A stretch of 24,182 nucleotides of DNA from a virus (Duplodnaviria; Caudoviricetes). Under the pieces are notes generated by a model that had not been told where the DNA came from, made no database searches, and was given only the letters and a program-made list of their open reading frames with translations. Each line of letters opens with the position of its first letter. Position 1 is the first letter of the stretch. A program made the translations under genes and the position numbers. This document shows positions 11,184 through 12,499 of this stretch, one piece after another. The stretch spans positions 1 through 24,182 of IMG/VR virus record IMGVR_UViG_3300005512_000325. One strand, 5' to 3'.

Positions 11184-11570
11184 TTAGCCCCTGCCAAACC
11201 TCACATCGATGTCTTTGGTTTCAGCCAAGTGCTTTGCAATGACTCGATACACGTCGTCCACATCGTGCATCTTTAGCTGCGTTACGGATTTTTTGTTAAA
11301 TAAAGCAGTCTGCACAGGACGCCATATAATCTCTTTTACGAGCGCTCCTGTAGGCTCTATAGGTAAGGTCACCACCTGTTGCATATCGTGTCCAGAAGCC
11401 GCTAGAGCGCGTGCTATGTCATCACAATAGGCGTGTATGGCTTTGTTCTGTTGACTCGTAAGTTTAGGCGATAAGATCTCGTACACCTTGCCAGAATTCT
11501 GGTGTTCCATGATGTACTCGCAGAACTGTTGCGCCTGGTACTTGTTATTCACTACCCAACGCTCGCTCAT
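11184..11570 (-). CDS. NinB/Orf-like recombination protein
   Basis: LTSQQNKAIHAY...IA and KSVTQL motifs resemble the NinB family; lies in a nin-like region. Confidence 0.6.
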   Translation of the reverse strand: MSERWVVNNKYQAQQFCEYIMEHQNSGKVYEILSPKLTSQQNKAIHAYCDDIARALAASGHDMQQVVTLPIEPTGALVKEIIWRPVQTALFNKKSVTQLKMHDVDDVYRVIAKHLAETKDIDVRFGRG

Positions 11571-11938
11571 GCCTTGACCCTATCACCTTCGAGGGTCATG
11601 TATTGACCATGAGTTTCTAAGCAGCGCTGTCGGAATGCAGCACATCCCATGAAATCGTGGGTCAAACAATCCACCGACGTCCAAGAACGAAGCTCAATTT
11701 TATCACCTTTTTTCGGTAATTGTTTTGCAAACGGAGAGCCTCCACTGTCGTTAGCTCGCTTTAACCAGTTTACGCAAAACCTTGGACCCGACTTCTTACG
11801 ACGCGCTGGGTTAGCGTCAGCCCAATTAGCTATCGCCTGTAGCTCGTTATGAACATCAATGTTTTTGTAAGCCCTTTGCCACTTAATAATCTGCGCATCA
11901 TCGGGTTCGTAGTAAGTACCGTCATTTAAAATTATCAT
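11567..11938 (-). CDS. Replication-initiator C-terminal-like domain protein (123 aa)
   Basis: WQRAY.NIDVHNELQAIANW.DANP.RRK...RF.VNWLKRA resembles C-terminal domains of phage replisome organisers. AAGGGA Shine-Dalgarno before ATG 11938. An in-frame stop shortly upstream excludes an N-terminal extension. Confidence 0.6.
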   Translation of the reverse strand: MIILNDGTYYEPDDAQIIKWQRAYKNIDVHNELQAIANWADANPARRKKSGPRFCVNWLKRANDSGGSPFAKQLPKKGDKIELRSWTSVDCLTHDFMGCAAFRQRCLETHGQYMTLEGDRVKA

Positions 11939-11956
11939 CCACACTTCCCTTTTAAT

Positions 11957-12130
11957 GCCGGAGCAAGCTCCAGCAAATCAGTTAGTTAATAATGGCGAGC
12001 TATGATTACTGTATCGAATCTTGACATCTATCCGCTTGATCTGCTCTCGACCAGCGGGGCGCATCATAGAGAGGGTCAACTCTGCTCCGAGGTTCTTCGG
12101 TTCCTCGGCCTAACGCCCAGTAATCTCTGA
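11957..12130 (-). ncRNA. Candidate structured (pseudoknotted) RNA
   Basis: Complementary pairs 12004-12011/12118-12125, 12058-12061/12114-12117, 12032-12036/12053-12057, 12087-12092/12103-12108, 12021-12025/12075-12079, 12044-12048/12069-12073, plus a G(CUUG)C tetraloop hairpin at 11957-11974. Two mismatches become G.U pairs on the minus strand. Confidence 0.55.
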
Positions 12131-12132
12131 CA

Positions 12133-12217
12133 AAGAAAGGAAGGCATGAGTAGTACAGGGGAGTCTAGGGGTGTCCTAAAGCATCCTTTTGTGTATACTA
12201 CCCATGTCTTATTTCTT
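12133..12217. repeat. Long imperfect inverted repeat
   Basis: AAGAAA..AAGGCATG.GTAGTA.AGGGGA..TAGG against CCTA..TCCTTT..TACTAC.CATGTCTT.TTTCTT. Confidence 0.75.
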
Positions 12218-12270
12218 CGCCGAGTTAAGACTACCACAGATGACACCTACCAGGTCAAGTGGCTCCCTTT

Positions 12271-12297
12271 GGCCCCTCATCCGAGGGGCTTTTCTTT
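12271..12297 (+). terminator. Rho-independent terminator, antisense to all genes
   Basis: GCCCCTC-ATCC-GAGGGGC followed by TTTTCTTT on the + strand; no T-tract on the minus strand. Confidence 0.75.
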
Positions 12298-12499
12298 AAA
12301 TAAACCACTCAGCGATTCTAACGGTTTCACCATATCGGTTAATTACCGGCTTCATCGTTGTTTGGATTTTATGCCCCTCATGCCGCAACTCTGAGATGCG
12401 AGCTGGAGTTTCAATTACCCCCAACTCATCCCATGCGTTCAATCTGGTCAGTGACTTACCCTGTTGCAGGTAACGCAACACTCTATTTTTCTGGCTCAT
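12296..12499 (-). CDS. Winged HTH protein (HTH_39-like)
   Basis: SQKNRVLRYLQQGKSLTRLNA...GV....ARISELRHEGHKI; AAGGA Shine-Dalgarno. Confidence 0.8.
   Translation of the reverse strand: MSQKNRVLRYLQQGKSLTRLNAWDELGVIETPARISELRHEGHKIQTTMKPVINRYGETVRIAEWFI

Follow-up and report, generated by a model that had tools for sequence, protein, structure and literature searches.

A covarying, pseudoknotted element family linked to lone initiator modules in marine phages, and a candidate replication origin

How does a phage genome start its replication when its initiator consists of a C-terminal module without a DNA-binding domain? The question is raised by a 24,182-nucleotide (nt) stretch of tailed-phage DNA (positions 1 to 24,182 of IMG/VR record IMGVR_UViG_3300005512_000325, referred to here as the window). 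The record comes from a marine phage, is 69% complete and has almost all of its genes on the minus strand. In it, a 123-amino-acid (aa) protein related to the C-terminal part of known initiators is encoded beside a gap (11945-12295) that holds a compact folded core. We found that this core belongs to an uncatalogued, strongly covarying and, by comparative analysis, pseudoknotted element family with 137 distinct members (type A), alongside which there is a second family (type B). The element family is tightly linked to truncated initiators and is exchangeable with unrelated structured cassettes, which take its place in close relatives. The reading we favour, at about even confidence, is that the element is a transcription-activated, RNA-dependent replication origin, which would replace both iterons and the DNA-binding domain.

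Lone initiator modules and the elements beside them

The first-pass annotation of the window, made from the letters without database searches, had taken the 123-aa protein for the C-terminal domain of an initiator and nothing more. Homology bears this out: the protein resembles the C-terminal part of D3 orf73, phiRgIBDN1 gp42 and VaK_0038 (E 1e-11 to 1e-18), which identifies it, as far as homology goes, as the replisome-recruiting C-terminal module of replisome-organiser initiators. The chain carries no N-terminal DNA-binding domain, and 23 of 23 A1 homologues begin at the domain. The protein itself had no Pfam or PHROG hit. A profile search brought 6699 relatives, some lone and some forming the C-terminus of longer proteins; among 39 longer relatives scanned, 25 carried Phage_rep_org_N, HTH_36, DUF6291 or Lin1244_N and 14 had no Pfam hit. 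Other arrangements were also seen: in P0159, P0181, P0190, P0216 and P0228 (about 245 aa) the domain is N-terminal and the C-terminal part unannotated, and P0142, P0150 and P0170 show three matched stretches.

The link with the structured element was counted over distinct loci from the protein search with at least 2 kb of upstream sequence. We found type A at 123 of the 156 lone-domain loci and type B at 31, so that 154/156 had one or the other, whereas neither was present at any of seven loci with fused initiators (L380, of uncertain length, together with three Stenotrophomonas prophages and three cultured phages). Controls run on reversed sequences were free of hits. At both of the lone-domain exceptions, a similar terminator and promoter are followed by a gap that is non-coding and folded. 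One, L281, looks A-like by eye only (covariance model R1 did not detect it; z -0.76), and the other, L312:1064-1603, has a gap element of a fourth kind, about 500 nt long, in which several hairpins are GNRA-capped.

Complete type A genomes have one copy of the element each. Two complete carrier genomes have no recognised helicase, primase, polymerase or full initiator; none of these families was found among the 95 open reading frames (ORFs) of at least 90 aa that were scanned (37/38 in G001, 22/38 in G003 and 36/45 in G005), and DnaB was absent from 5/5 complete records. G005 (loci L305 and L306) is rated complete and carries a pair of portal genes and a pair of terminase genes that differ in type; it is possibly chimeric and so was not relied on.

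The first-pass annotation had placed the last hairpin of the element a few nt before the Shine-Dalgarno of the lone gene. The family as a whole is not tied to this gene as its direct leader: the end of the type A element is within 100 nt of the domain in only 37 of 157 cases and more than 100 nt away in 120, separated from it by variable genes over as much as 1.8 kb. The first gene downstream is arbitrary, and the intervening genes vary freely.

Type B elements are about 250 nt long, share no detectable sequence with type A, never occur together with it and lie behind the same layout of terminator and promoter. In 47 sequences, four covarying helices cross each other; these were established by anchored counts, RNAalifold being uninformative because two subgroups were misaligned, and the nested folding energy of type B was no better than that of shuffles (z +1.93). 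A third conserved gap element, type C, is found in Vibrio phages 1.275.O, 1.122.A and NF. Phage 1.275.O combines it with a lone domain and has no annotated helicase, primase, polymerase or full initiator; NF has the same element type but with a different short DnaD-like protein. More tentatively, and with rather less confidence than we give the type A origin, these cassettes may represent a widespread class of phage origins in which at least four interchangeable, unrelated pseudoknotted RNAs replace the DNA-binding domain and iterons, each forming with the lone module an RNA-protein initiator that loads the host helicase.

Fold of the type A core

All of the sequence segments quoted in the first-pass annotation were found at their positions on the minus strand, and the helices it proposed were compared among relatives. 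In 49 distinct close relatives, 97.7% of the cells were paired and 16 of 35 pairs showed double-sided changes, a covariation exceeding all 500 shuffles and all slid controls. Such changes uphold the 8-bp outer helix (6/8 pairs), the CCGAGG hairpin (4/6) and the CCGCU/GGUC arm (6/9); GGCG/CGCC was invariant in this set, and 3/4 of its pairs covary in the wider one. A covariance model built from the close relatives also picks out divergent subfamilies, which lie upstream of divergent protein homologues (62 matches among 100 loci). Double-sided changes occurred at 30/31 pairs in the wide alignment of 74 matches, an alignment made by fitting to the model and still containing two weak second hits, which were dropped from the P6 and pseudoknot counts. 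The AGAG/CUCU hairpin had no double change among the close relatives and 4/4 in the fitted wide alignment, where 79% of its cells were paired. The 3' hairpin with its G(CUUG)C loop lies where it had been placed, and most close relatives keep a hairpin there with altered stem and loop.

Neither of the two crossing pairings originally proposed stood up. UUGAC/GUCAA showed no compensatory change and had one pair broken in 18/49 close relatives; both halves are present in only 42/137 elements, and 80 have UUGAC without GUCAA. CUCUC/GAGAG showed no double change and has both halves in 63/137, so nothing supports the suggested switch between it and AGAG/CUCU. The true pseudoknot, which had been missed together with the P6 arm, joins the P4 loop to the 3' tail. 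It is invariant in the 49 close relatives, and pairing of at least four pairs was found in 136/137 distinct parsed elements (seven loci could not be parsed), with loop and tail changing together from GAGC/GCUC in close members to GAGU/ACUC, CGGUU/AACCG, CGAUU/AAUCG, CAGUG/CACUG, CGGUA/UACCG, UGACU/AGUCA and UGGCU/AGCCA. The observed score was reached in 0/5000 permutations of 13 loop classes, the loop patterns having been hand-chosen after inspection of the data. Beyond the pairs of P6 listed in Table 1, the rest of that arm is predicted. Together, the comparisons suggest that P1, P2, P4 and P6 meet in a four-way junction, and that the core is completed by a P3/P5 domain and a single pseudoknot. 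One type A member, L189:2058-2236, has two additional GNRA-capped hairpins ahead of P3.

Folding-energy z scores were -0.77 for the interval first annotated, -2.37 for the core and -2.69 for the whole gap; folding energy by itself is weak evidence here, and the comparative evidence is strong. The strand of the structure is fixed because G-U cells outnumber A-C cells (133 vs 30), in agreement with the sense polarity first suggested, and the structure is likely RNA. This polarity is equally compatible with a displaced strand, and single-stranded DNA (ssDNA) on the non-template strand could instead form a primosome-assembly or priming site, still an origin but not an RNA. GNA triloops and C-G-closed GNNA loops are stable in DNA. 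GNA triloops or non-GNRA GNNA loops closed by C-G occur in 20/55 close 3' hairpin tails, loops that, by these generally known classes, suit DNA over RNA and so tell against an RNA-dependent origin; the DNA-hairpin reading looks strong in close relatives and weaker in divergent ones. Passages of PMC5737381 also state that comparative methods cannot tell RNA from ssDNA. The multi-junction pseudoknotted fold with conserved purine-rich joints, the UUCG-type loops in divergent members and the GNRA loops in L189 and L312 argue for RNA, and we consider an ssDNA site improbable.

The first-pass annotation did not recognise the element as a known family, and an Rfam search of the window indeed gave 0 matches (best E 0.19, at the terminator). 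At the Rfam 15 gathering threshold, relatives of types A, B, C and D gave only a tRNA. Searches with type A among cultured phages and plasmids matched only the terminator hairpin, and type B had no match among phages; a scan of prokaryote genomes with A3 gave four loci, three with fused initiators and one cut at a contig end. The literature searched, which left most subscription papers outside its coverage, held no description of the module. Three short motifs and two contig names had no match in six supplementary files of PMC10690425 (files 1, 2 and 4 lay outside this search), and the motif could be among the viral RNA candidates of that study.

A candidate RNA-dependent origin and its rivals

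In the window, the gap is flanked by a winged-helix gene (HTH_39) and the 123-aa gene, which is followed by ninB-like, exonuclease and ninG genes; the gap and the 123-aa gene occupy the slot of lambda O and P. As first described, the gap is non-coding: the ORF list has just two short ORFs across it, no conserved ORF spans it, and the short ORFs there differ among relatives. The element does not coincide with a switch in GC skew.

Parts of this layout (Table 1) recur elsewhere. The terminator pattern was found in 83/98 close type A and 40/40 type B loci, and a loose antisense -10 pattern in 86/98 and 37/40. The promoter of the element was picked by eye, a promoter scan limited to 16-18 nt spacers having given none there, and its -10 pattern matches 68/98 close loci and only 5/43 A2 and 9/40 type B loci. 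A 5' hairpin of changing sequence is present in 16 of the 17 relatives viewed, out of 65; its loop holds short direct repeats, in the window as in relatives, whose sequence differs between them. In the divergent loci viewed, the AT-rich stretch extends over 60-80 nt. AAGG(G/T), taken earlier for the Shine-Dalgarno of the next gene, follows 155/157 type A elements; in those divergent loci, the next start codon is about 80-100 nt away from it. After the core, the divergent type A members L360, L378, L402 and L342 have in addition a 3' hairpin, an AT-rich stretch, a conserved small tandem-GA hairpin and then the next ribosome-binding site.

Table 1. Features in and around the gap (positions in the window unless a locus is named)
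Feature	Position	Strand	Basis or detail
Conserved core, type A	12004..12125	-	122 nt; covariation
P1 outer helix	12118-12125 with 12004-12011	-	covariation
P2	12114-12117 with 12058-12061	-	covariation
P3 hairpin	12087-12108	-	covariation
P5 hairpin	12070-12083	-	covariation
P4 arm	12032-12057	-	covariation
P6 small arm	12013-12031	-	one covarying pair (70/72 paired, three pair types) and one near-invariant G-C
Pseudoknot, P4 loop GAGC (12043-12046) with 3' tail GCUC (11997-12000)	11997..12046	-	covariation
AT-rich stretch after core, possible unwinding element	11975..11993	-	sequence; present in close relatives
3' hairpin, CUUG loop closed by G-C	11957..11974	-	conserved in about 52/55 distinct tails, stems and loops changed
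AAAAGGG motif	11947..11953	-	kept even where no gene directly follows
Variable long 5' hairpin ending in pyrimidine tract, possibly attenuator-like	12142..12209	-	z -3.12
Predicted sigma-70-like promoter for the element	12228..12258	-	-35 12253-12258, -10 12228-12233, 19-nt spacer
Predicted antisense RNA of about 90 nt	12194..12295	+	-10-like hexamer 12194-12199, intrinsic terminator 12271-12295 (promoter/terminator scan)
67-aa winged-helix protein (HTH_39), possible separate and optional DNA-binding partner	12296..12499	-	PF14090, E 6e-16
Lone 123-aa initiator C-terminal module	11567..11938	-	homology
Type B examples	L170:1749-2015, L269:2249-2496 and 45 more (alignment A4)		covariation, no Rfam match
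Type C (cultured Vibrio phages)	L137:870-1226, L138, L296:2990-3352, L297, L298		long-range helix

We propose that host RNA polymerase would transcribe the element from the upstream promoter, and that the folded core would keep the transcript's 3' part on its template, giving an R-loop over the AT-rich stretch from which priming might occur. Alternatively to an R-loop, the core may bind and recruit the small 123-aa protein. The lone module would then help to load the host helicase, which in ordinary initiators is the job of iterons and the N-terminal DNA-binding domain, and the short antisense RNA and the 5' hairpin may tune how much sense RNA is made. Three metatranscriptome runs share 4-8% of the words and have contigs that cover the element. 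These contigs are no evidence of its expression, because they carry neither strand nor level, the runs were found through the conserved stretch, and in X1 the bin with the capsid gene reaches the same depth (106.8 vs 109).

The same layout would suit a cis-regulatory mRNA leader of a long operon (an attenuator, a processive antiterminator or an antisense-gated switch), with the lone-domain link reflecting shared ancestry. The hairpin with its pyrimidine tract and the predicted antisense RNA fit such a leader, as does the result that the scanned ORFs matched no Q-like antiterminator family, and two further facts favour it while counting against an origin. The element always stands behind a promoter at the head of its operon, the place expected of a leader. 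In Vibrio phage 1.119.O, an ordinary full initiator and DnaB are present, yet so is a type C 3' core, and there, as in jenny 12G5, type C precedes a methylase in the head region. A leader is harder to reconcile with the arbitrary first gene downstream, with the exchange of large unrelated cassettes in one slot, with fused-initiator loci that have no such element and with two divergent loci where further promoter-like sequence follows the element (by eye); it would also leave the replication start of these genomes unexplained. We regard a leader as a serious competitor, if an unlikely one.

Another account would separate the element from replication, as a free non-coding RNA or ribozyme, and have HTH_39 and the lone module act as a split initiator on an ordinary DNA origin. 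HTH_39 adjoins the gap in the window, its gene overlaps the lone-domain gene in L312, and the 5' hairpin loop of some members holds short direct repeats. The winged-helix gene was found near 81/161 loci (64/86 close type A, 11/36 A2, 2/6 A3 and 4/33 type B) and might supply the DNA binding there, a further point against an RNA-dependent origin, but it was not found near the other 80, and the repeats are missing in many members. No Rfam ribozyme matched, and nothing here points to ribozyme activity. This account, too, seems to us improbable.

Other observations weigh against an RNA-dependent origin. The fused controls are just seven, all distant and one (L380) of uncertain length, and the counts are not independent events because the lone loci are related marine phages. 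The predicted fold of the 123-aa protein (pLDDT 87.8) had no Foldseek match in the PDB, and fold searches overall gave no clear match: the best Z was 4.0, and DnaD structures 2zc2 (Z 3.5, rank 12, rmsd 3.9, 65 aligned) and 2i5u (Z 3.1) sat among unrelated helical proteins, so that the fold search on this model could not connect the protein to DnaD or DnaT. Finally, the functional role is argued from comparison throughout.

In many small genomes of marine phages, replication genes cannot be recognised. If the proposed origin is real, a folded RNA and a 120-aa adaptor would make up the origin in such genomes, which would explain their replication, add a phage replication strategy and give orphan structured RNAs a testable job. 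The analogous element in the cultured Vibrio phages makes the idea testable now. Even as a leader, the element would represent a new, strongly covarying RNA family, together with a second one.

Comparison with known systems

The lambda O, P22-like and replisome-organiser initiators, such as D3 orf73 and phiRgIBDN1 gp42, lie in the same slot, after a cro-like gene and before ninB and ninG, and share a homologous C-terminal module with the 123-aa protein. Unlike these systems, the locus described here has no N-terminal DNA-binding domain and no phage helicase, and has a structured non-coding element in their place; as for iterons, inspection by eye showed only short repeats, not conserved, in the loop of the 5' hairpin.

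The IncI1/IncB repZ leader has a pseudoknot and an antisense Inc RNA upstream of a replication gene, an arrangement that the element resembles if its predicted antisense RNA is made. The element is not a leader of the repZ type, because both strands of its pseudoknot lie inside it, away from the ribosome-binding site of the replication gene, and because the domain gene is usually more than 100 nt off.

With the ColE1 origin (RNA II and RNA I) and the R-loop origins of T4, the element would share a promoter, a folded sense transcript, a short convergent antisense transcript and reliance on host enzymes, all of them predicted here. It differs in its compact pseudoknotted core, its dedicated phage protein and its lack of an Rfam match, and the predicted antisense RNA would overlap just about 16 nt of the sense RNA.

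Structured elements associated with replication are also described in plasmids. In the passages of PMC5737381 considered here, ARRPOF is located within a gene-free region required for rep-independent plasmid replication, pKH9 replicates without its rep gene, and ARRPOF, GEBRO and PAGEV, which average 223-349 nt, are linked to replication, with their mechanism and RNA or ssDNA nature left undecided. Unlike the element described here, these are plasmid-borne, and the same passages mention no link to lone initiators. ARRPOF, GEBRO and PAGEV, together with ColE1 RNA II, are the nearest precedents for the phage element.
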